This document shows positions 1,257 to 12,319 of a stretch of 35,715 nucleotides of DNA, piece by piece. Source of the DNA: a virus (lineage: Duplodnaviria > Caudoviricetes); the IMG/VR virus record IMGVR_UViG_3300037423_000638, positions 1 to 35,715 of that record; one strand, written 5' to 3'. Made by a program: the position numbers and the translations under genes. Position 1 is the stretch's first letter. The number at the start of each line of letters is the position of its first letter. The notes beneath the pieces were generated by a model. The model was not told where the DNA came from. It did no database searches and saw nothing but the letters and a program-made list of their open reading frames with translations.

Positions 1257-1526
1257 ATGAGCGATCTGACGCGACAACAGTTATGCGCGCAGCTCCAGGT
1301 GAGCGAATCGACCGTGCGCAGATGGGAGTTGGACGGCATGCCGTTCACTCCTGCGGGAAATCGGCCCCGCTATGATCTGGCCGAAGTCAAATCTTGGCTG
1401 AGGGGACGCGGGTGTCAATCTGGAAGGACAAGGACGGGCGTTACCACGTCGGAGTTATGCGCGGCGGCAAACGCCTTCACCGCAAGCTACCGCAAGGCGC
1501 ATCTAAGGGTGATGCCAAAGACCTAG
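1257..1526 (+). CDS. xis: excisionase / MerR-like winged-HTH DNA-binding protein
   Basis: LTRQQLCAQLQVSESTVRRWELDGMP...PRYDLAEVKSWL HTH pattern; directly upstream of and overlapping the integrase. Confidence 0.8.
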   Translation: MSDLTRQQLCAQLQVSESTVRRWELDGMPFTPAGNRPRYDLAEVKSWLRGRGCQSGRTRTGVTTSELCAAANAFTASYRKAHLRVMPKT

Positions 1527-2368
1527 AGGCCGCACTGCTGCAATCCGTGGCGGCCCGCAAAGCACCCTCCATCCCACAAGACCCGCTCATGACCGCAATC
1601 CTTGGCCTGTACATCGAGCACGCGAAGTCCTTGCGCAGCCCCGACACGGCCACGCACCACGCGAACCGGCTCGGGCCGTGGGCCGAGAACTTCCGCGCCA
1701 GCCAAGCGCGCGAGATGGCCGCCAAGATCGTCAACGACATGCGCGAGCACTATGCGCCTGCGACCATCAACCGCAGTCTGAGCGCCCTGCGCACAGCCCT
1801 GACGATCGCCTGGGAGCGAGGGTTGACCGCCGAGAACTTCGGCCTGCGCATCAAGCGCCTGCCCGAGAAGAACCTGCGGGACATGACGCTGAGCATGGAG
1901 CAGGTAAGACAACTGGCCGAGGCGTCCAGTGAGCAGGTGCGCGCCGCGATTTACATCGCCATCTTCACCGCCCTGCGCCGAGGCGAGATATTGAGTCTTC
2001 GCCGGGAAGACGTCGCCGCGGATCACCTCACGGTGCGCGCCGGCAACACGAAGACGCTCAAGGCCCGCACCGTGCCGATCGTGCCGCCGCTTCGCCCGTG
2101 GCTTGAGTACATCCCACTCAAGATCACGGCCGAGGGGCTGAAAACGGGCTTCCGGCACGCGCGAACCAGGGCGATGATGCCGTGGGTCAGCTTCCACGAT
2201 CTGCGCCGCTCATGCGCGACCCTGATGATCGAAAGCAAGGTGGACCTGTACGCCGTCTCCCGGCTGCTGGGGCATTCGTCCGTCGCCGTGACTCAGGCGC
2301 GGTACGCCCACATGCAGGACGATCAGGTGCGCGCTGGGCTGGAAAAGACGTTCGGGAGGATTGGATGA
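1412..2368 (+). CDS. int: tyrosine recombinase (phage integrase)
   Basis: Catalytic motifs TALRRGEI (R), TKT (K), FHDLRRS (HxxR), LLGHSS (H) and QARYAH (Y). GTG start at 1412 with GAGGGG SD. Adjacent to attP. Confidence 0.95.
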   Translation: MSIWKDKDGRYHVGVMRGGKRLHRKLPQGASKGDAKDLEAALLQSVAARKAPSIPQDPLMTAILGLYIEHAKSLRSPDTATHHANRLGPWAENFRASQAREMAAKIVNDMREHYAPATINRSLSALRTALTIAWERGLTAENFGLRIKRLPEKNLRDMTLSMEQVRQLAEASSEQVRAAIYIAIFTALRRGEILSLRREDVAADHLTVRAGNTKTLKARTVPIVPPLRPWLEYIPLKITAEGLKTGFRHARTRAMMPWVSFHDLRRSCATLMIESKVDLYAVSRLLGHSSVAVTQARYAHMQDDQVRAGLEKTFGRIG

Positions 2369-3366
2369 ACTACACCCGGAATTACACCCGGCGTATGGAC
2401 CTCATGGCGAAGATGGCCGGTTTTCATTGGTGGGTGATGCAGGGTTTGAACCTGCGACCCCTGCCGTGTGAAGGCGATGGCGCGGCACGCCATGCCTCAT
2501 CTTTCCCTTGGTGGACAAGGGCTTGGCGGGCACTGAAAGCCACTGCTCAGCAGCGGTTTACACCCAAATTGCACCTGGCGCTGGCTATCGCCCTCGCCCT
2601 CCCCGCCCACGCCCTGGAGGCATCCGCCACCAACGGCCGGATGACTGCTACCGCGTATCACTACACCGGCTGGGCCATCTGCTCCCTGACCCTGGATGGC
2701 TATCAGTACGTCGATGCCGCCGATCACGGCCGGTGCCTGCAGTCTGCGGTCTCGTTTGATTGGCAGGGTGAGGCCTTCAACCCGACCGAGGCCGGATCGG
2801 TGAAGGACGGCCCGACCTACCTGCCTAGCACCACCTTGCTCTACGCCTTTCAGGCGGCCGGCGACAAGATGGCAACCGAAGTGCAGATGGCCTACTGGCA
2901 GGGGGGCTTGTCGGGCCACGTCCTGCGCAAGTTCCTGTGGGTGGGCTACGGCGGCAGGAACATCATCGAGCACCGCATCGCCTTCGAGCCGCCCTATTCC
3001 GAAGTGCACTCGATGGGGCAGTATGAGGTGCTGACGGGCTACATGCCGCGCGGGTTCTCGCATTTGCGCAGCTACGATCCGACCACCAAGACCTTGGCCG
3101 AGCTGTCGGACGGGCCCGGCGAGCAGGCGCTGCCGGTGGTGATGTGCACGCCCGATGACCAGCACTGCGCCGGGGTCTATTCGCCCCTGCCGCTGGTCGG
3201 TGGCGGTTACGGGCGCTGGCGCTTTGTGGACTGCGTGAAGTGGAACATGGTGGTGCGGTATGCGAACCCCAAAGGGGTGTACCGGTTCCGGGTGTTCTCT
3301 GCTTACGGGACACTGGCGGAAGTGCGCGAATCGATGGATTGGCTGTATTCGACGCAGCCGCGATAA
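2365..3366 (+). CDS. exported or membrane-anchored beta-rich hypothetical protein whose ORF spans attP
   Basis: ATGA overlap with the int stop and GGAGG 5 nt upstream. Hydrophobic segment LHLALAIALALPAHA with an AxA site, then a globular domain (DAADHGRCLQSAVSFD...FNPTEAGS). The start is uncertain (alternative TTG 2569). Confidence 0.7.
   Translation: MNYTRNYTRRMDLMAKMAGFHWWVMQGLNLRPLPCEGDGAARHASSFPWWTRAWRALKATAQQRFTPKLHLALAIALALPAHALEASATNGRMTATAYHYTGWAICSLTLDGYQYVDAADHGRCLQSAVSFDWQGEAFNPTEAGSVKDGPTYLPSTTLLYAFQAAGDKMATEVQMAYWQGGLSGHVLRKFLWVGYGGRNIIEHRIAFEPPYSEVHSMGQYEVLTGYMPRGFSHLRSYDPTTKTLAELSDGPGEQALPVVMCTPDDQHCAGVYSPLPLVGGGYGRWRFVDCVKWNMVVRYANPKGVYRFRVFSAYGTLAEVRESMDWLYSTQPR
2370..2391. 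repeat. tandem TACACCCGG direct repeats; candidate integrase arm-type sites (left arm)
   Basis: TACACCCGG at 2371-2379 and 2383-2391; related TTACACCC and TTGCACCT on the other side of the core. Confidence 0.6.
2428..2475 (-). mobile_element. attP core: 3' half of a tRNA-Val(CAC) gene
   Basis: The minus strand reads GCCTTCACACGGCAGGGGTCGCAGGTTCAAACCCTGCATCACCCACCA: anticodon loop TTCACAC, T-arm GCAGG-TTCAAAC-CCTGC, 3' CCA. There is no D-arm or 5' acceptor strand. It lies about 60 bp past the int stop. Confidence 0.9.
2558..2576. repeat. candidate integrase arm-type sites (right arm)
   Basis: TTACACCC (2558-2565) and TTGCACCT (2569-2576) resemble the left-arm repeats. Confidence 0.5.
3335..3366 (+). 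repeat. copy 1 of a 32-bp imperfect direct repeat (gene 3' end, DWLYSTQPR*)
   Basis: 27/32 identical to 3749-3780. Confidence 0.85.
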
Positions 3367-3391
3367 CATCAACCCGTACACGGAGAGCCGA

Positions 3392-3739
3392 ATGACTGAT
3401 CGACAACAACACTTCGATGACGCGCGCGTTCGCACCATCGTGGATGCGATTACGGCGACGGCGTGGCACCACCGAAACGACGACAGCCCGCGCGAACTGC
3501 GCGCGGCGGTGGAGCAGATTGCCAAGCCTGCCCTCCAGCATCCAGAAGCCGCGCACGGCTGGGTGCGGGTTCCGCATCGGCACATTGCCAACATTCTGAA
3601 CTTGATCGACCCCGCGCCCATCATGGCTGCGGACGGAAAGACCTATGTGTTCAAGGATCCCATGGCGGTCGAGAGGTTGATCGTGCTGAGCGCCGAAGTC
3701 CGCGCTTTGACGGACGCTATGAAGGGGCCGCTGGATTGA
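3392..3739 (+). CDS. phage hypothetical protein (inserted cassette)
   Basis: GGAGAG SD at 3382-3387, ATG 3392; flanked by the 32-bp repeats. Confidence 0.65.
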   Translation: MTDRQQHFDDARVRTIVDAITATAWHHRNDDSPRELRAAVEQIAKPALQHPEAAHGWVRVPHRHIANILNLIDPAPIMAADGKTYVFKDPMAVERLIVLSAEVRALTDAMKGPLD

Positions 3740-3748
3740 GATGGAGTC

Positions 3749-3780
3749 TGGATTGGCTGTACGCTACGCAGCCGCGGTGA
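3749..3780 (+). repeat. copy 2 of the 32-bp repeat (orphan gene 3' end, DWLYATQPR*)
   Basis: 27/32 identical to 3335-3366; encodes almost the same peptide plus a stop. Confidence 0.85.
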
Positions 3781-3781
3781 G

Positions 3782-3845
3782 GGTGTTTTGTGATGGCGAA
3801 ATGCGCAGGCCGGAGATCAACACCGGCCCCCAATCACAAAGCATC
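3782..3845 (+). promoter_or_regulatory. long interrupted hairpin where convergent transcription units meet
   Basis: GGTGTTTTGTGAT (3782-3794) pairs with ATCACAAAGCATC (3833-3845), 13 bp with 2 G-U. Inner stem GGCCGG (3808-3813) / CCGGCC (3823-3828). Confidence 0.5.
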
Positions 3846-3850
3846 TATCG

Positions 3851-4171
3851 TCAAGCTGCCAGCTTCAGCGCCACGACAACCCAAGTGCCCGTGAAGGCGC
3901 CCACGCTGCCCGGTAGTAGCAGCCAGCGGTCCTGGGTATACCCGATCACCGCCAGCGCACCGAGGACGAACAGGGCGACGGCCCACAGCGAAGCGGCGAC
4001 GGGACTGCCGAATTTCACCGAAGCGACGTACAGCGCCCACGCGCCATCCGTGAGCGTCATCGCAACGAACGCCGCGATCCAGCGCCAGACATGCCACGCA
4101 AGACGCGACTGCTTGCAGCACTGGAAGGGGTAGTAGCACGGCGCGGCACCCCAGATGCGGCAGCGCTTCAT
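3851..4171 (-). CDS. small multi-pass membrane protein
   Basis: About 3 hydrophobic segments; ATGA overlap with the phosphoesterase stop. Confidence 0.65.
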   Translation of the reverse strand: MKRCRIWGAAPCYYPFQCCKQSRLAWHVWRWIAAFVAMTLTDGAWALYVASVKFGSPVAASLWAVALFVLGALAVIGYTQDRWLLLPGSVGAFTGTWVVVALKLAA

Positions 4172-5400
4172 GTCGCGAACTCCAGCCAGCGCGTGTTGAC
4201 CGCACGCCGGCGATCCTCAAGGTGCACCGGCATCGAGAACGTGATGCCTCGCTCGCTGTGTGTCAGCCATAGGGCTTGCTGCGGCGGCTCAAAGCCGAAG
4301 TTGTTGGACGCCGCGTATTCGTCGTAGCCCTTCAGGCTGCCGTTCACGATGAATCGCTGCAGCATGATCAGCTGGTGCCAATGGCCCATCAGCAGGGTGT
4401 CGAACCCCAGATCCAGTTGCGCATCGCGGCTGCGCTTCTTGTGGTCGCCGCGGGCGATCGGCCCAAGTGCGCCGATCATGCCGTCCCCGCCTCGAAACTG
4501 GTCGCCGTGCGTGAGGCAGTACCGATGCCCGAAGACCGTCCAGTGCGCGTCGGAGCCGTCGGGGATGTAGAACTGGATGCGCCTGTCGCCCTCGAAGTGG
4601 CGCGCCAGCACCTGGTAGAGCAGCCAATCGAAATTAGTGTAGTTGCGCCCCTTGGCCCGAGGCTTCTTCGTGTTGCGGCCGTGGTTGCCAGTGACGCAGG
4701 GAACGAAGACGCGCCCGAACGCGTCGGCCAGCATGCCGATCGCGCGCACCAAGCAGTCGCGCAGGTCCAGCCAGGCCACCATTACCGGGACGTCATTCGT
4801 CTCGCTCAACTCCTCGTGGATGTCGCCGCTGAGCATGTCGCCGCCGAGAGCAAGCACGATGCCCGGGTAGTTCGGCGCCACCATGTGATGCATGCACAGG
4901 TCGATCGTACGCTCGACGGCCGTGCGCAGCCGGCGCTGCGCGATGGCGATGTCGTACTCGTTGACGCCATTGATCTGCGCCGGAAAAACCTTCTCACCCC
5001 AGTGCAGATCGGACAGCAGCAGCGTCGGGACATGCAGGCCGCCTTTGGTCACGCGGGCGGGGTTGAGCCACAGCGGTGGGTTGGCCGCAGCTGCAGCCAT
5101 CTTCAGGATCTGGCGCTTGACGTACTCGTCGTCGAGCGAAGCCTTTTCGGCGGCGCAGAGTCTGGCACGCAGCTCGCGCACCTCGTCCAGTAGTTCCGGC
5201 GTTCCCGGCGGCGCGTTCACGACTGCGCGCCCGTCCTGAGCCACGGCGAGGGTGATGCCTTCGCGGTTTTCAAGCTTCCGTCGACGCGCCTGCACGCCGC
5301 GGACATCGACGCCAAGGTGGCGCGCGACAGCCGAGGGGCTGCCGCCGAATTGGGCCCAGGTCTGCTTGAGCTGTTCGTCCGTATATTGGGCTTTGGGCAT
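4168..5400 (-). CDS. calcineurin-like metallophosphoesterase with N-terminal HTH
   Basis: Motifs SDLH, LGGD, GNHG, HGD, GHWH; N-terminal GGSPSAVARHLGVDVRGVQARRRKL HTH-like segment. Confidence 0.88.
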   Translation of the reverse strand: MPKAQYTDEQLKQTWAQFGGSPSAVARHLGVDVRGVQARRRKLENREGITLAVAQDGRAVVNAPPGTPELLDEVRELRARLCAAEKASLDDEYVKRQILKMAAAAANPPLWLNPARVTKGGLHVPTLLLSDLHWGEKVFPAQINGVNEYDIAIAQRRLRTAVERTIDLCMHHMVAPNYPGIVLALGGDMLSGDIHEELSETNDVPVMVAWLDLRDCLVRAIGMLADAFGRVFVPCVTGNHGRNTKKPRAKGRNYTNFDWLLYQVLARHFEGDRRIQFYIPDGSDAHWTVFGHRYCLTHGDQFRGGDGMIGALGPIARGDHKKRSRDAQLDLGFDTLLMGHWHQLIMLQRFIVNGSLKGYDEYAASNNFGFEPPQQALWLTHSERGITFSMPVHLEDRRRAVNTRWLEFAT

Positions 5401-6008: not shown

Positions 6009-6326
6009 ATGCTGCTCAGGCTGCTGCCCCTTGTCGTGCTCGTCGCGTGCTCAGACGCCGGGCCGTCATTTCCGAAGGCAACGGCAGCCGAACGCGCAGA
6101 CGCTGCGCAATCAGCGCTTGCGAAAATCCCGCCCTTGCGCTCGTACCACTACGACCGCGGCGAGCTCCTGGTCTTCGATGTGCCCGTGCCAATCACGCGT
6201 ACGATCACCGGCACTCAGACTTGCATCCTCTGGCGGGACGCTGAACTGAAGACTGCGACGATGCAGTGTCCGGTCGACACGCCCGATCCGCCGATGCGCT
6301 CGGCGCAGGACTCCTCGCGCTTCTAG
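6009..6326 (+). CDS. lipoprotein moron (possible superinfection exclusion)
   Basis: MLLRLLPLVVLVAC lipobox. It is the only plus-strand gene in the late region. TAGAAT -10-like box at 5996-6001. Alternative start ATG 6000. Confidence 0.75.
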   Translation: MLLRLLPLVVLVACSDAGPSFPKATAAERADAAQSALAKIPPLRSYHYDRGELLVFDVPVPITRTITGTQTCILWRDAELKTATMQCPVDTPDPPMRSAQDSSRF

Positions 6327-9300
6327 CGGGCGCGCTGGCGATCCATCTCTTCGCGCTCCTCTTCATTCGCGCGGCGCTCGAACTTCTGGCGGGCTTGCTT
6401 GGACAGACCGCTTCTGGGTTCCAGTGCCTGCTGGATGGCGCGGTTGATTTCACGCGGCGTCATGCCGATTTCTTCCATGCGCTCGCGGGCCTTGTCCTCG
6501 TCGCCTCGCTTGAGGTCGTCTTTCACAAGCTGCATCGTGTAGCGGCGCGACTGCTCGAAGCGGTCCGACGTTTGCTGGTTCACCGCGGCTTCCGGGCCAC
6601 CCGGATGGCCTTGGGAGAACGTGAAGCCGGTGACGGTGCCCACGACCTTCTTTTTGTCCAATTCGGTCGCGTGGCCCTGCATCCAGTCGTAGACGCGGGT
6701 GATGTCGTCCCAAGGAAGCTGGGCCTTCATCACATGGGCGACACCTTCACCGATGCGTTTAGGGACGGACCCGTTCGGGTCTTCGATCGGCTGGCCAAGG
6801 CTGTTGTGCCCGAGCATGGATTCGCTGATCGCCTTCGGGATCGGCGCGCCCTTGTTCCAGGCCGTACCCAACGTATCGGTCACCCAGCCCACCAGATCCT
6901 CTGCAACCTTGCCGGTGGGCAGGCGCATGTACTCATGACGATCCCCGATCGAAGCGCCCATGTCGACGCGGTTCTTTTTGCCGGGCTCGTTGGCCCAGGT
7001 CGAAGACAGCTGGTAGGGATTCCAGCTCGCCAGCGCCGCCGGCCGCTCGGCGATGTTCTCGCCCATCGCCTTGGCGCGGTCGATGTAGCCCTGGACGATC
7101 TCGGCCCCGGGCTTGTCCTTCTTCAGCGAGTCCACCAAGTCTTGCACCAGCGAGGTCGCGATGATGGCGAAGCCGACGTCCAGCGCGATGACGCCCCAAG
7201 CCTTGCGGCGCTGCTCCCACACCGCGCGCTTCGCTTCATCGGCCGGCACGCGTTCGGACAGCATGGCCTTCAGGCCCGAGGGCATGCCGGCCCAGGTGTC
7301 CTTGATCGTGCCGAGATTGGTGAAGTTGAAGGATCGCGAAAACAGCAGAATGTTGGCGGCCTTGCGTGCCAGCTCGCTCTGGTTTTCCTTGGCAACGACG
7401 CCGCCGTAACGGTTGGCCAGGTGCGCGGCCATGATCTGCGAGGCCGCTTCGGAGTAGCCTTTGGCCTGATAGCGCGCCTTGGCGTCGGCGTAGATGCCCA
7501 TCTGAAGCGCGCCGATCTGCTTCCACAGCATCGTGTGGTGCAGGAACTCGCCGGCTGCGTCCATGCCCTTCTTCGCCTGCGTCCCAGCGCCGTCGTGGAT
7601 CGCGTTGCCTAGAGCTTCGATACCCAGTGTGATCCAGCTCTCGTCGGGGTTGCCCCAGCGATCACCCATAGGCTTGAAGTTCTGCGCGATGTCGGTCACG
7701 TCGATCGACTGCGAATGATTCTCGCCGATCGGCACCATCCCGGCCTCGACCGCTTCGCGCATCAGGCCGTTGTCCTTCAGCAGGCCGTGACCCTTGACGT
7801 ACAGCTGCAGGGTGAGCATCTTCACCGGCGAGGCCGGCATCGCCTTGCCCCAGATCACCATGTTGTGGATCAGCGGCGAGAACATGATCGCGCTCATTGC
7901 CTTGCTCTTCAGGAGCATGTAGCCGGTGTACCAGGACGAGTCCTGCGTTGACATGATGGCCTTGAGCGGCCCCTCGAAGTCCTTGCGGATGTACAGCGGC
8001 ACGCGGTCCATCACCACATTGCCATCGGCGTCGGTCATCGGTACCGTCTTGCCTTCGGCGTCCTTCGTGAAGCGCGGGCGATACTGCATGAAGGCCGGGT
8101 GCGCGATGGTGATGTAGCCCTCGGCGTGGCCGTCGCGCACGAGCTCCTCGCCGGTGGCTTGGCCGATCGCCTTGATCTGGTTGATCAGGCGCCGGCCCGC
8201 GATAGCGCGCTCCAGGCGGTACATCGCCAGCGGCATCGTCATGATGTCGCGCACGACCTTGGCGCCCGCGGCACCCTGCTGCTTCGCCAGTTCTGCACCA
8301 GCGGCTTCCGTCTCCTCGGCCGTGAGGTGCTTGCGGTGCTTCAGGCTCTGCGCCGTCGTCGAGATGTTGCGGCCCTCCCCGCTTGATGCGGTCTTCGGGC
8401 CCCCGGACAGCGAACGCAGCTTGCCGATGTCGCCGTCCTCGCCGATCGTCACCAGCATGCGCGGCGTCCAGAACGGCAGGCCCTCGCCTTCGACCATGCC
8501 TTCGGCTTGCGCTGCGCGCCACAGGCCTTGGCCGTACTCATGCAGGGTGTCGACGGCTTCGCGCTGCTTCTCAGTCAGGCTGGCCAAGCCAACGCCTTCG
8601 GGTCGGCTGTAGCCCTCCTCATCGCGTTCGCGGATGCGTGCGACGTTCTCCTCGTCGGCGGCTTCCCACATGCGCTGGCGCTCTTCGGCGGTGAAGTTCG
8701 CCTCCAGCAAGCGAGACAACCTGCCCCATTGAACTTGCGCCCAGCGGGTTTGGTTGGCGTATTTCTGCGCCATCGCCTGGGCCTGCTTATTGTTGGTGGC
8801 GCTCATGGGAGCCACGCCCATCATCAAGTCGTTGCGAAGGGTGGTGTAGAGATCGCTCGCAGCGTGTAGCATCTTCGCACCGGGGCCTGCGTACGGTGCG
8901 CGGACTTCTTCTGGGAGGTCAGCATCCGATTCGGCGGCGCGGGCAAACTGGGGGCGAATGCCGTTTTCATCCAGCAAGCGCTGAACTTCGTCGGGCCCGA
9001 CCTTCGGGCGACCTTGCGCATCCTTCTCGAATCGATCGCCAAAGCGGCGCCAGAATTCCGAAGTGCCTTGGAAGGTCGGGTGAATAAGCTCGCCACGGTC
9101 GTTCTCCGCAGGTCGGCGCTGGCCATCCACTTCGATGGTGCGCTGCTCGGAGCGGGGAAGCACAGACGGCTCATTCGGCGGTACAATGCCCTTGCTCTGA
9201 CCCGGTGGGTTCGTGGCCGTTCCGCTGGCTTCATCGGACGGCGCAGCAAACGGGGGCCGCTCGCCAGATGCGGCAGGAGACTGGGCCCGGTCTCCCTCCC

Positions 9301-12300
9301 AGAGCACCTTCCATGTGTTCTTTGCTTCCGTCCGCGACGGGTAGGCTGTGCGGACGGTGTAGTAGTCCCGATCTCCATCTTTCCCGAGTTGCAGCTCCAC
9401 GAACATGCGGCGCGCAGTACCTGCCGCCCCCGTCTCCAGAAGCACTAGCTGGGCCGTTTGCTCGGGTTGGTAGATCTTGTTGAAGTGCGTTGCGACTTCG
9501 TGCACGAATGCCGATGCATCCGGGAAACCAGCAGCGCGAATAGACGCGCCGTGTCGATTCTCGATATGCCGTAAGCCATAAAGGTCGTTGCCCTCTTCCA
9601 GACGAATCTTCCCGGCTTGCCGCCGCATGATGCGTCCCATGTCGGCGCTGACCTCGCCGAAATCGATGGACCCAGACGGGCTTTTGACGAATCGGCTCGC
9701 ACCCTCGCGCTCTTCGTTGGGATCGTCGCGAGAGAACGACGCTTCCTTCTTCGCGAAACCCGGCTCCGGATTTCGTCCTCGCTCCACGTACCCACGCGCG
9801 GGCAGCAGGTAGTTCGCGATGATCTCGTCGCGCGTCATCTTCAGCGAGTCGATGCCGTGCTCGCGCAGGAATGTGCGGATCGCCGCAACAGCCCGCTTGA
9901 CGATGCTCATCTCGGGCCGTGTCTGCGCCATCTCGGCCAGCACTTCTTCGGCGGCCGTGAGGCGGTCGCGCTTGTTCGCGAGGTCGAGCCCGTACTGGTC
10001 GGCCTTGCGCGTGATCTCTTTTGGCAGCGCCGCAGCAATTTCGTTCAGGATGCCGTTCAGGCGATCGCCGAAGACGCCGCGCAAGCCGAAGTGGCCAAGC
10101 GCCTCGTGGAAGAGCACGCGCTGGACATCGCCCTTTGTTTGCAGTGCATCGCCAATGAGGTAGACGCCTCCCTTCCAGTGGAAGCCCTCAATGTTGCCTA
10201 CAGCGCCCTGAGAGTTCTGCTGCTCCCACACGCGGCGCACCGGCTCGGGCGCTTCGTCCATCGAGCCGAGGACATGGATGTCCGGCTTGCGCAGCCAATC
10301 GCGCGTGAGCGTACTGACGACCCGATGGATCTGGGCGCGCTTGCCCACGGTGGGCTCAGTGTCACTGCGTCGGAACGATGGCTCTTCGGGGATGGCGGCA
10401 ATGGCGCGCTCGGCCTCGCGCACGGGCTCCAGCCGCTCGACCTTCGGCGTCTTCTGCGAAAACCCGGAAATGGTTTCCGGTTTTTCGATGCCGGGCGTCG
10501 GATGGACGGGCGGCTCAAGGCGCACAGTGGGCGTTGGCTGGGCGGCTTCGACCGCAGCGGGAATTCGCGATTCGGAAACTGCGGATTCGGCGGGCTCGCG
10601 AGTCGGCGCAAAATCTTGCACCACGCGCTCGGCATCTGTTGCACGCGAACGGCCCACCACGGCACCTTCGGCGCTGGGGACAAACGGGATTTCGTGGGCG
10701 CGCAGCAAAGCAGCAACGGCAGCAGGATCGCCCTTCACCGTGACGGTGCCCGAGTCATTGCGGCGTACCGTGATCTCGGCGGCTTTCGACTCCACCTCAC
10801 GCGCTGACAACGCTTCGAGCGGCTTGGGTTCCGGTACAGCCGCGCTCGCTGCAGGCGGAGCAACTTCGCGCGCTACTGCATCGGCAATTCGAGGTGGAAC
10901 AGACTCACCCTCTGCACCAATGGAAGCAGGTTCTGCGGCCAGTCGCTGTACGGGTTCAGCATCGCTTCGAGCTCCAGGCTCCACGCCTGCTGTGGCGTCA
11001 GCCAGCCGGCCTCCATCGGCTCTTGCAGGTTCGGCTGGAAGCGCAGTGTCTCGGCTGACATTGGGTGTCTCCAGCGGCCAGATGGCCAGCATCTGCGAAC
11101 GAATGGAGCCTTCAGGCGCGGGATTCGCTGCAGCCTTGGCCGCTTCGATGGCCTCGTCTACCGACTGCGCTTGCAGCACGCGGCCCACATCGGCAATCTT
11201 CGGGGTGTCGGCGGAAACGCCCTCGGCTTCTGCCGTCTGGACGGCTTCCGGCGTGCGCAGGTCATGCGGCGCTTCCACATGCCCCGGCATACCAGCCGCC
11301 AAGAGGCTCCCTTGCACGCCGGAGACGACCGTGTTGGCAATATCGAAGGGCTGCTGGAGATTGTCGGGATCGGCGGCGTTCTGGATGACGCGCCCCGCTT
11401 CTCCCGTGGCCGCGCCCACCGGAAATCCCGTAACCGCACGCACCGCACGCGAGCCCTGCATGGACATCGGTACGGCCCCATTGATGCCCGCCCACATCCC
11501 GGCCGTGAGCGCGGATACGGCCGCCTGGCGCGGAGAGCCGCCGGACTCCAGCACCTGGTCGGCCTTCTCGCCTGCGGCCTTCAAGATGACCGGGCGCATG
11601 GCGTCAAAGCCAGTGGATAGCGCCTTGCCGACGAACTCCATCATGCCGGGGTTCTTGGCGACAGCAGCGGGAGCCTCGGCCAATCCACCGGAGGCGATGA
11701 TCGCGGGCAGGTCTTGCAGCAGGCCGCCCACGCCGTTCGCGATCTTGGACTTGAGGTCCATCTTCTCGTCGGGCTTGAGGGCGTAGTAGTCCACTGCGTT
11801 CTGCGCCGGGTCGACGAGCTCGCGGAAGGCCGCGTCCTGCCACGAGTAGTCGGCCTTACCGCCGAACGGCTGCTTCACGGCGTTGATCACCGACTCGGCG
11901 ATGACCGGCAGGGAGCTGAAGGTGGCGGCGATGTACTTGGCCGACTTCGCGCCCGACTCGCCCCAGCCACGCCCGAAGGCCTCGGCGGCACCGACATCGC
12001 GCTTGGCACCAACCGCCGGCGGGTTGACGAAGCCGCGACCGCCTCCAGCCTCAGGCGGTGCCGGCGGCTGCGCCGTTTCCGCAAAGCCCGTGCCCATGGG
12101 ATCGCCCAACGGCTGGGGCTGGTCCGCGACAACGGGCTGCTCGGTCGTCGCGTTATCGCGCTGGTTCAGTCGATCGGTCAGGAACGGAATGATCTCGTCG
12201 GGCTTGTAGCCAGATTTGATAGCCCCGTCCGTGTCGAATCCCGCCTGCTGACCGAGAAACGACGCGATCTCCGCATCGCTGTAGCCAGCGGTGCGGGCAC

Positions 12301-12319
12301 CCTGATAGTCGAAGGGCAT
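6323..12319 (-). CDS. giant internal virion / DNA-ejection protein of the large polyvalent type (zincin peptidase and PBECR-like modules)
   Basis: 1998 aa, last gene of the ejection cluster. N-terminal GYSDAEI/GYKPDEI repeats, Gly/Ala-rich membrane-like region, RVLFHEALGHFGLR zincin motif, GKIRLEEG...YGLRHIENRH module. Confidence 0.85.
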   Translation of the reverse strand: MPFDYQGARTAGYSDAEIASFLGQQAGFDTDGAIKSGYKPDEIIPFLTDRLNQRDNATTEQPVVADQPQPLGDPMGTGFAETAQPPAPPEAGGGRGFVNPPAVGAKRDVGAAEAFGRGWGESGAKSAKYIAATFSSLPVIAESVINAVKQPFGGKADYSWQDAAFRELVDPAQNAVDYYALKPDEKMDLKSKIANGVGGLLQDLPAIIASGGLAEAPAAVAKNPGMMEFVGKALSTGFDAMRPVILKAAGEKADQVLESGGSPRQAAVSALTAGMWAGINGAVPMSMQGSRAVRAVTGFPVGAATGEAGRVIQNAADPDNLQQPFDIANTVVSGVQGSLLAAGMPGHVEAPHDLRTPEAVQTAEAEGVSADTPKIADVGRVLQAQSVDEAIEAAKAAANPAPEGSIRSQMLAIWPLETPNVSRDTALPAEPARADGGRLADATAGVEPGARSDAEPVQRLAAEPASIGAEGESVPPRIADAVAREVAPPAASAAVPEPKPLEALSAREVESKAAEITVRRNDSGTVTVKGDPAAVAALLRAHEIPFVPSAEGAVVGRSRATDAERVVQDFAPTREPAESAVSESRIPAAVEAAQPTPTVRLEPPVHPTPGIEKPETISGFSQKTPKVERLEPVREAERAIAAIPEEPSFRRSDTEPTVGKRAQIHRVVSTLTRDWLRKPDIHVLGSMDEAPEPVRRVWEQQNSQGAVGNIEGFHWKGGVYLIGDALQTKGDVQRVLFHEALGHFGLRGVFGDRLNGILNEIAAALPKEITRKADQYGLDLANKRDRLTAAEEVLAEMAQTRPEMSIVKRAVAAIRTFLREHGIDSLKMTRDEIIANYLLPARGYVERGRNPEPGFAKKEASFSRDDPNEEREGASRFVKSPSGSIDFGEVSADMGRIMRRQAGKIRLEEGNDLYGLRHIENRHGASIRAAGFPDASAFVHEVATHFNKIYQPEQTAQLVLLETGAAGTARRMFVELQLGKDGDRDYYTVRTAYPSRTEAKNTWKVLWEGDRAQSPAASGERPPFAAPSDEASGTATNPPGQSKGIVPPNEPSVLPRSEQRTIEVDGQRRPAENDRGELIHPTFQGTSEFWRRFGDRFEKDAQGRPKVGPDEVQRLLDENGIRPQFARAAESDADLPEEVRAPYAGPGAKMLHAASDLYTTLRNDLMMGVAPMSATNNKQAQAMAQKYANQTRWAQVQWGRLSRLLEANFTAEERQRMWEAADEENVARIRERDEEGYSRPEGVGLASLTEKQREAVDTLHEYGQGLWRAAQAEGMVEGEGLPFWTPRMLVTIGEDGDIGKLRSLSGGPKTASSGEGRNISTTAQSLKHRKHLTAEETEAAGAELAKQQGAAGAKVVRDIMTMPLAMYRLERAIAGRRLINQIKAIGQATGEELVRDGHAEGYITIAHPAFMQYRPRFTKDAEGKTVPMTDADGNVVMDRVPLYIRKDFEGPLKAIMSTQDSSWYTGYMLLKSKAMSAIMFSPLIHNMVIWGKAMPASPVKMLTLQLYVKGHGLLKDNGLMREAVEAGMVPIGENHSQSIDVTDIAQNFKPMGDRWGNPDESWITLGIEALGNAIHDGAGTQAKKGMDAAGEFLHHTMLWKQIGALQMGIYADAKARYQAKGYSEAASQIMAAHLANRYGGVVAKENQSELARKAANILLFSRSFNFTNLGTIKDTWAGMPSGLKAMLSERVPADEAKRAVWEQRRKAWGVIALDVGFAIIATSLVQDLVDSLKKDKPGAEIVQGYIDRAKAMGENIAERPAALASWNPYQLSSTWANEPGKKNRVDMGASIGDRHEYMRLPTGKVAEDLVGWVTDTLGTAWNKGAPIPKAISESMLGHNSLGQPIEDPNGSVPKRIGEGVAHVMKAQLPWDDITRVYDWMQGHATELDKKKVVGTVTGFTFSQGHPGGPEAAVNQQTSDRFEQSRRYTMQLVKDDLKRGDEDKARERMEEIGMTPREINRAIQQALEPRSGLSKQARQKFERRANEEEREEMDRQRAR
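10457..10487. repeat. 14-bp-arm inverted repeat inside the giant gene
   Basis: CGAAAACCCGGAAA-TGG-TTTCCGGTTTTTCG, 13/14 pairs. Confidence 0.6.
10873..11061 (-). CDS. 62-aa nested out-of-frame gene inside the giant ejection-protein gene
   Basis: GGAG-7nt-ATG. By hand count about 53/62 codons end in G/C in this frame versus about 23/62 in the host frame. Protein-like sequence. Confidence 0.65.
   Translation of the reverse strand: MSAETLRFQPNLQEPMEAGWLTPQQAWSLELEAMLNPYSDWPQNLLPLVQRVSLFHLELPMQ

Follow-up and report, generated by a model that had tools for sequence, protein, structure and literature searches.

The sequence analysed here (henceforth the window) is a linear virus record of 35.7 kb (35,715 nucleotides) with an estimated completeness of about 59%. 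It carries a plus-strand integration module in which a xis-like HTH ORF (1257..1526; HTH_17, E 8.5e-4, under the curated cut-off) lies 5' of a tyrosine integrase gene of the tRNA-Val(CAC) family (1412..2368; PF00589, E 7e-21) that likely starts at GTG 1412 (Shine-Dalgarno, SD, pairing of -7.1 kcal/mol). Behind these follow a proximal pair of arm-type repeats (2367..2390, plus strand; motif AAYTACACCC, copies 12 nt apart, repeat family D19), a 48-bp attP core on the minus strand (2428..2475) that corresponds to the 3' half of a tRNA-Val with anticodon CAC, and a distal arm-type pair (2557..2576, plus strand; copies at 2557 and 2568). The core and both arm clusters lie where the original prediction for this DNA had placed them. 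The arm motif also occurs in related attPs, and kin of the integrase were found integrated at tRNA-Val(cac). Compared with full tRNA-Val genes, the core has one mismatch in 2 of the 401 genomes searched, and ARAGORN detected no complete tRNA in the window. An integrase, a tRNA 3' half and flanking arms with no full tRNA are the features by which a tRNA-Val(CAC) tyrosine-integrase attP is recognised, and all are present here.

No close relative emerged when the integrase protein was scanned by itself. Related attPs came from a scan based on 27 aligned integrases, which gave 56 loci. Among the 40 closest, 18 had an intact attP with the core and arm motif of the window and were scored; in the others no core could be located, a complete tRNA was present (tRNA-Val(cac) behind int in 10 of the 40), or the locus was truncated or a duplicate. 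The arm pattern missed L175, L178 and the window itself, and L175 and L178 were scored separately. The distance from core to last arm was 138–150 nt in the 18 related attPs and 149 nt in the window. As layout and distance equal those of these 18 controls, an assembly artefact was rejected, and the attP of the window is confirmed as an intact, genuine tRNA-Val(CAC) site. Among the related loci, L158, L164–L166, L183, L184 and L186 have a complete tRNA-Val(cac) placed after int and ahead of an arm-core-arm site in which only the anticodon stem-loop of the core is left. This tRNA is possibly a phage-borne replacement of the host copy; tRNA-dependent lysogeny has reportedly been described and offers a comparison for such loci. 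Four others (L160, L169, L181, L188) have extra ORFs between int and core, some of them HNH-like by eye.

The feature that drew attention to this site is a reading frame that runs through it. An ATG (2365-2367) overlaps the integrase TGA (2366-2368) and is preceded, 5 nt upstream and within the 3' end of int, by the Shine-Dalgarno sequence GGAGG (2355..2359, plus strand, -9.7 kcal/mol). As had been predicted, the frame continues from this ATG via the core into a signal-like segment and a domain of 250 aa; it is stop-free from GTG 2182 inside int through ATG 2365 to TAA 3364-3366, and the remaining two plus-strand frames contain 3 and 1 stops over 2368-2568. The part that crosses attP is an open leader of 68 codons (2365..2568, plus strand) that is putatively translated. 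Further in-frame starts in the leader are ATG 2395, 2404 and 2413 and, within the core, GTG 2434 and ATG 2437. From the end of the core to the signal the sole ATG, GTG or TTG is TTG 2569, which sits in the last arm repeat and, as anticipated, lacks a clear SD: its best pairing is -2.3 kcal/mol at 11 nt, compared with -9.7 for ATG 2365. The latter ranks as the strongest of 19 window starts scored, and the values for seven other window genes range from 0 to -7.8 kcal/mol. The SD and the coupling to int had been regarded as the stronger evidence for a functional start; the SD retains that role. The ATGA overlap also ends 5 of 37 related integrases and is weak evidence when the window is taken alone. 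No sigma-70-like promoter was found in 2200-4000.

The signal-like segment (LHLALAIALALPAHA; 2569..2613, plus strand) is a hydrophobic stretch, and the N-termini of homologues are likewise signal-like. It contains a hydrophobic 11-mer with a KD value of 2.5 and an AHA motif, the putative cleavage site. Started at TTG 2569 it would be 15 aa long with no K or R; the basic residues lie only upstream, where the preceding 15 residues have a net charge of +4. The mature domain (2614..3366, plus strand) belongs to an unnamed family with 2554 homologues at E <= 0.001, with no Pfam family among the 120 matches listed. The protein itself had no match in PHROG or Pfam, none in 50,697 annotated phages, and in an atlas comparison matched only clusters without a name. 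Gene calls of the homologues begin with M in 111 of 116 cases, with K or R among the first residues in 79, 50–75 aa before a DHG motif; the att-adjacent homologues have no Met-Lys start.

The globular domain of about 250 aa expected from the sequence gave a confident model (pLDDT 92.5), a galactose-mutarotase-like beta-supersandwich with a C-terminal helix. Its best fold matches were the GH174 endo-1,3-fucanases 8jd7 and 9k1g (Z 21.4 and 20.9; the top match with rmsd 2.8 over 241 aligned residues; PMC11943901) and a PBCV-1 chain, 8h2i (Z 20.7, rmsd 2.6, 221 aligned). From the fit of the residue range we identified this chain as the finger protein P19, for which its authors suggest a role as a polysaccharide lyase (PMC9617893). 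A chlorovirus protein also ranks among the top viral matches. The likeness to GH174 and P19 is one of predicted fold, beta-sandwich plus C-terminal helix, and differs from family membership at the sequence level: identity to these structures is 10–13%, many non-catalytic domains reach Z 14–19, and a PDB sequence search with the A1 profile gave no match at E <= 10. At least 97% of 116 homologues keep D52, H53, R55, Q58, E68, N71, E74, E153, Y158, D181, E185, R216, R218, K224, W225, N226 and R230. The invariant D52 and E153 have a spacing similar to that of the catalytic D119, E120 and E218 of Fun174A, which is no more than a lead. With over 2500 homologues, no Pfam, invariant D/H/R/E/Y and a mutarotase-like fold, this is a candidate carbohydrate-active family. 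A fold alone shows no function, but we infer an exported, probably glycan-acting protein, periplasmic or at the surface and presumably useful in lytic growth. The earlier view that the product is exported and not a repressor is consistent with a predicted secreted-type beta-supersandwich.

The last ~30 nt of the gene (DWLY-TQPR-stop) are duplicated, at 3337-3366 and about 3749-3780, with a 115-aa ORF (3392..3739, plus strand) between the copies, as if a cassette had been added by recombination. No such duplicate was found within 2.5 kb in L002, L003 or L006, three of the relatives described below.

The four viral records nearest to the window gene are 61–69% identical (L002, L003, L006, L011); L011 equals L003 over 921 nt, leaving three distinct close relatives with DNA (67–69% identity). 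In each of the three the gene lies directly behind an integrase unrelated to that of the window, and its frame can be read without a stop from an SD-led ATG that precedes the core (3/3). The stops or frameshifts that had been named as evidence against the prediction are absent from L002, L003 (= L011) and L006. Together with the window, these relatives represent three unrelated integrase/att modules, at tRNA-Val, tRNA-His and a phosphatase gene. The exact ATGA coupling, whose conservation had been proposed as a check, is not conserved among them. The int TGA of L003 is overlapped by GTG 4746/ATG 4749 (TGATG), with a second ATG at 4779 (SD -5.3), and the frame stays open through the 3' half of tRNA-His on the plus strand. 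L002 and L006 share a lambda-like integrase and have a separate ATG (SD -5.2) 20 nt past the int stop, followed by 56 stop-free codons up to the signal. Run X1 contains a third allele with at least 4 leader substitutions and no stop among those listed.

The L002/L006 att core is 13 bp long. A run X6 contig departs from L002 at 709, beyond which it reads F-S-I-L-M-V-C-M-G on the opposite strand, and all 13 bp match within the stretch encoding VCMG in one LMWPc phosphatase gene out of the 8 examined. On the minus strand of L002:697-780 and L006:2780-2860 the attP appears to bring a replacement N-terminus for the host LMW phosphatase gene, which is split at the VCMG motif (..KKPVQFSVLLVCMG in L002, MPVQTSVLFVCMG in L006). 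The prophage junction at the LMW phosphatase was seen in run X6, and L153 has the same core. In L003:4750-4970 the tRNA-His core is on the plus strand relative to int and in L140 and L149 on the minus strand, so that this attP is apparently inverted.

When 130 loci, excluding the duplicates L004, L005, L011, L012 and L014, were screened with the three integrases, matches came only from L002, L003 and L006 (flanks at most 3–5 kb). The remaining four viral homologues (45–52%) have their own ATG and no integrase match nearby, and one of the 103 genomes from the host-like order has a stand-alone homologue. For the att-adjacent clade, no copy in the prophage state was found among the best 80 of 138 metagenome loci and 45 genome loci, all of them at most 52% identical. 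A linker pattern search found nothing, a 3'-end pattern picked out 9 stretches, of which 2 were known loci and the other 7 unrelated, and no contig of runs X1–X4 bridged the window attP. The protein-only members P0124/P0129/P0130 and P0002 suggest, by their sequences, two further att modules. Between Met3 and residue 40, where the hydrophobic core lies, P0124 and P0130 lack any M, V or L, and they carry an in-frame G-S-I-P resembling a tRNA T-arm, as read from the protein. Such protein-only cases are biased by gene calling, and the short P0008, P0017 and P0139 may be fragments or closed alleles. In all the att-adjacent members, family similarity begins inside the hydrophobic core, which indicates that att modules have been swapped within the signal-coding stretch.

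The caveat that 68 open codons may arise by chance was justified: with dinucleotide shuffling, P(open) for the window frame is 0.16, and in control attPs 10 of 54 frames are open (about 1 in 5), 5 of them with an upstream ATG. In the window alone the open frame is not more than chance, and the support comes from the relatives. Their individual values are 0.19 (L003), 0.19 (L002) and 0.34 (L006). The leaders of L002 and L006 differ by 42 substitutions in 171 nt with no indel; with that many sites substituted, the second allele would retain an open frame with P 0.16–0.29, giving 0.03–0.10 for the pair. For the two non-window modules the joint chance, as the product of module probabilities, is 0.006–0.018. 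Among gene-like plus-strand ORFs (GC3 >= 0.8, GC2 <= 0.6) behind 21 Val-type attPs, none of five is open through the core; when four by-eye picks are added, together with three genes behind His and lambda-like modules, 1 of 12 control genes is open (L149). Fisher's p for relatives versus control genes is 0.033 without and 0.009 with the window, but it draws on the same data as the joint-chance test, and the modules independent of the window number only two.

In the exception, L149, the open frame begins at an ATG ahead of the core and runs into an unrelated gene equipped with its own ATG. L150 resembles it: in both (about 3560-4100 in L149) an ATG before the His core opens into a small gene (MPRHQLPDF..), ahead of which lies CTGT-N8-ACAG, presumably an SOS-box-like element. 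In L190 a different secreted-type protein has an ATG (SD -7.9) between core and arm; in this 200-aa ORF (L190:628 onward; MLTIKKRLCRAAFYTGIALAFSAHA), which adjoins a Val attP, the distal arm repeats code for the signal peptide.

On these data we put at about even the probability that translation in the free phage starts before attP, with a disposable leader, and that integration cuts it. Ribosomes would start at the SD-led ATG upstream of the core, the protein would be exported by Sec and cleaved after AHA despite its long leader, and the 60–70 leader residues would be discarded with the signal peptide. Integration would remove ATG 2365, after which TTG 2569 could support weak expression at most. 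Exceptionally long N-terminal signals of autotransporters can pass Sec (PMC2805444); those signals have a common domain organisation, whereas the window leader would be unconstrained att DNA.

The absence of constraint is apparent from L002 and L006, in which substitutions at the three codon positions number 11/16/15 in the leader and 9/9/36 in the body. Leader codon changes comprise 3 synonymous and 21 non-synonymous ones, with 5.8 synonymous expected. A conserved leader peptide was rejected, since this pattern shows no protein constraint; a leader free of amino-acid constraint fits a disposable signal-peptide extension. The same lack of constraint suits another account, which we regard as unlikely, that ribosomes from the upstream ATG serve to carry transcription over the untranslated, structured att region (anti-polarity) or to unmask an arm start while the protein is made mostly from TTG or GTG. 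Both starts are kept in four of four cases, and coupled frames without a body do exist, since L172 and L176 have ATGA-coupled frames over the whole attP with no recognisable gene beyond (L172 SD -8.9). However, such a frame need not be shared with the gene, yet it is in frame in 4/4, and the att RNA fold is not unusually structured (z -0.5).

A possible but somewhat doubtful alternative to a start before attP is that the gene begins at the TTG or GTG of the distal arm, the frame across attP being chance or an inherited accident, and that integration only parts it from the xis-int transcript. In each of the four DNA-level cases a near-cognate start occupies the normal signal position, and it is the one picked by gene callers. 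The TTG of L002/L006 has an SD of -4.9, on par with the upstream ATG; GTG 4938 of L003 has no SD, yet a good n-region (MGTKK..). The L190 protein beginning in the arm and the open control frames (10/54) point the same way. This account has to set aside the joint chance for the non-window modules, a window signal of 15 aa without K/R behind a poor SD at TTG 2569, and P0124/P0130, which have no such start before the hydrophobic core.

A main start within the core in both states, at GTG 2434/ATG 2437, with the host flank changing transcription only, appears very improbable. GGUGG, the antisense tRNA end, gives these codons an SD of -4.3, the ATG is kept in host-like cores, and L002/L006 also have an in-core ATG. 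But the predicted unpaired fraction (0.15–0.19) is the lowest among the starts scored, the SD of the L002/L006 codon lies outside their 13-bp core, and L003 has no in-core start.

The idea that integration separates start from body was borne out in part. In two host-like tRNA-Val genes the host flank closes the frame 9 and 2 codons before the core (2/2). For L003 the body would follow a restored host tRNA-His, the 5' half of which gives no in-frame start in 6/6 prophage loci, and the 13-bp core of L002/L006 includes neither SD. With host flanks closed or startless and SDs outside the core, the SD-led ATG would be lost in all three modules on integration, and only in-core or arm starts would stay. 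On the other side, the coupling is not conserved and every module retains a TTG or GTG. Integration in any case deprives every gene behind attP of the xis-int transcript.

The mature protein would be identical whichever start is used, so any suitable att module could join the signal-coding stretch, provided that it supplied a start and basic residues and was free of stops. This tolerance would account for the recurrent association with different attPs even if the switch itself had not been selected. We consider it rather improbable that a portable, selected switch is at work, in which att forms a throw-away signal leader for a glycan-cutting protein carried on at least three, perhaps five, unrelated integrase/attP modules and made only when unintegrated, sparing the surface sugars of the lysogen but removing them during lytic growth.

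Several known systems bear comparison with the start before attP. In Myxococcus phage Mx8, attP lies inside int and integration swaps the C-terminus of the integrase; the likeness is a coding frame over the crossover, and the difference that the window int ends before attP. The sib element of lambda is an RNA decay signal that acts on int by retroregulation. In lambda as in the window, integration would part an att-side element from the xis-int transcript, but in the window a downstream gene would lose its likely start. In the mycobacteriophages BPs, Brujita and Charlie, the repressor gene contains attP close to its 3' end and integration removes a degradation tag, turning the repressor on, in units with no xis and no arm-site control (PMC3694055). 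The window shares an attP inside an open reading frame, and phage and prophage would encode different forms. It differs in that the ORF encodes a predicted secreted beta-supersandwich and not a repressor, that attP is 5' of the body, so a start would be lost and no C-terminal tag removed, and that a xis-like HTH ORF (a weak match) and arm sites are present. The arrangement would thus work like the BPs type while failing three of its defining features as given there. No account of attP parting a start codon from an exported gene was found in the titles and abstract openings searched.

If the start before attP is real, translation initiation of a cargo gene would come under the control of site-specific recombination, which would then act on more than the tails of repressors or integrases, and across temperate phages such starts would be misplaced by gene callers. 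The arrangement would also exemplify attP module exchange inside a gene, with a signal peptide that tolerates arbitrary upstream sequence.

Elsewhere in the window, short near-identical gene-end linkers (753-794, 487-511, 188-212 and 8-51) are common to L003 and L006, and the genes between them differ; by sequence, the linkers may be modular exchange points. A 1998-aa ORF on the minus strand (6323-12319), with 85% DNA identity to L002 at one end, is likely a virion or ejection protein.
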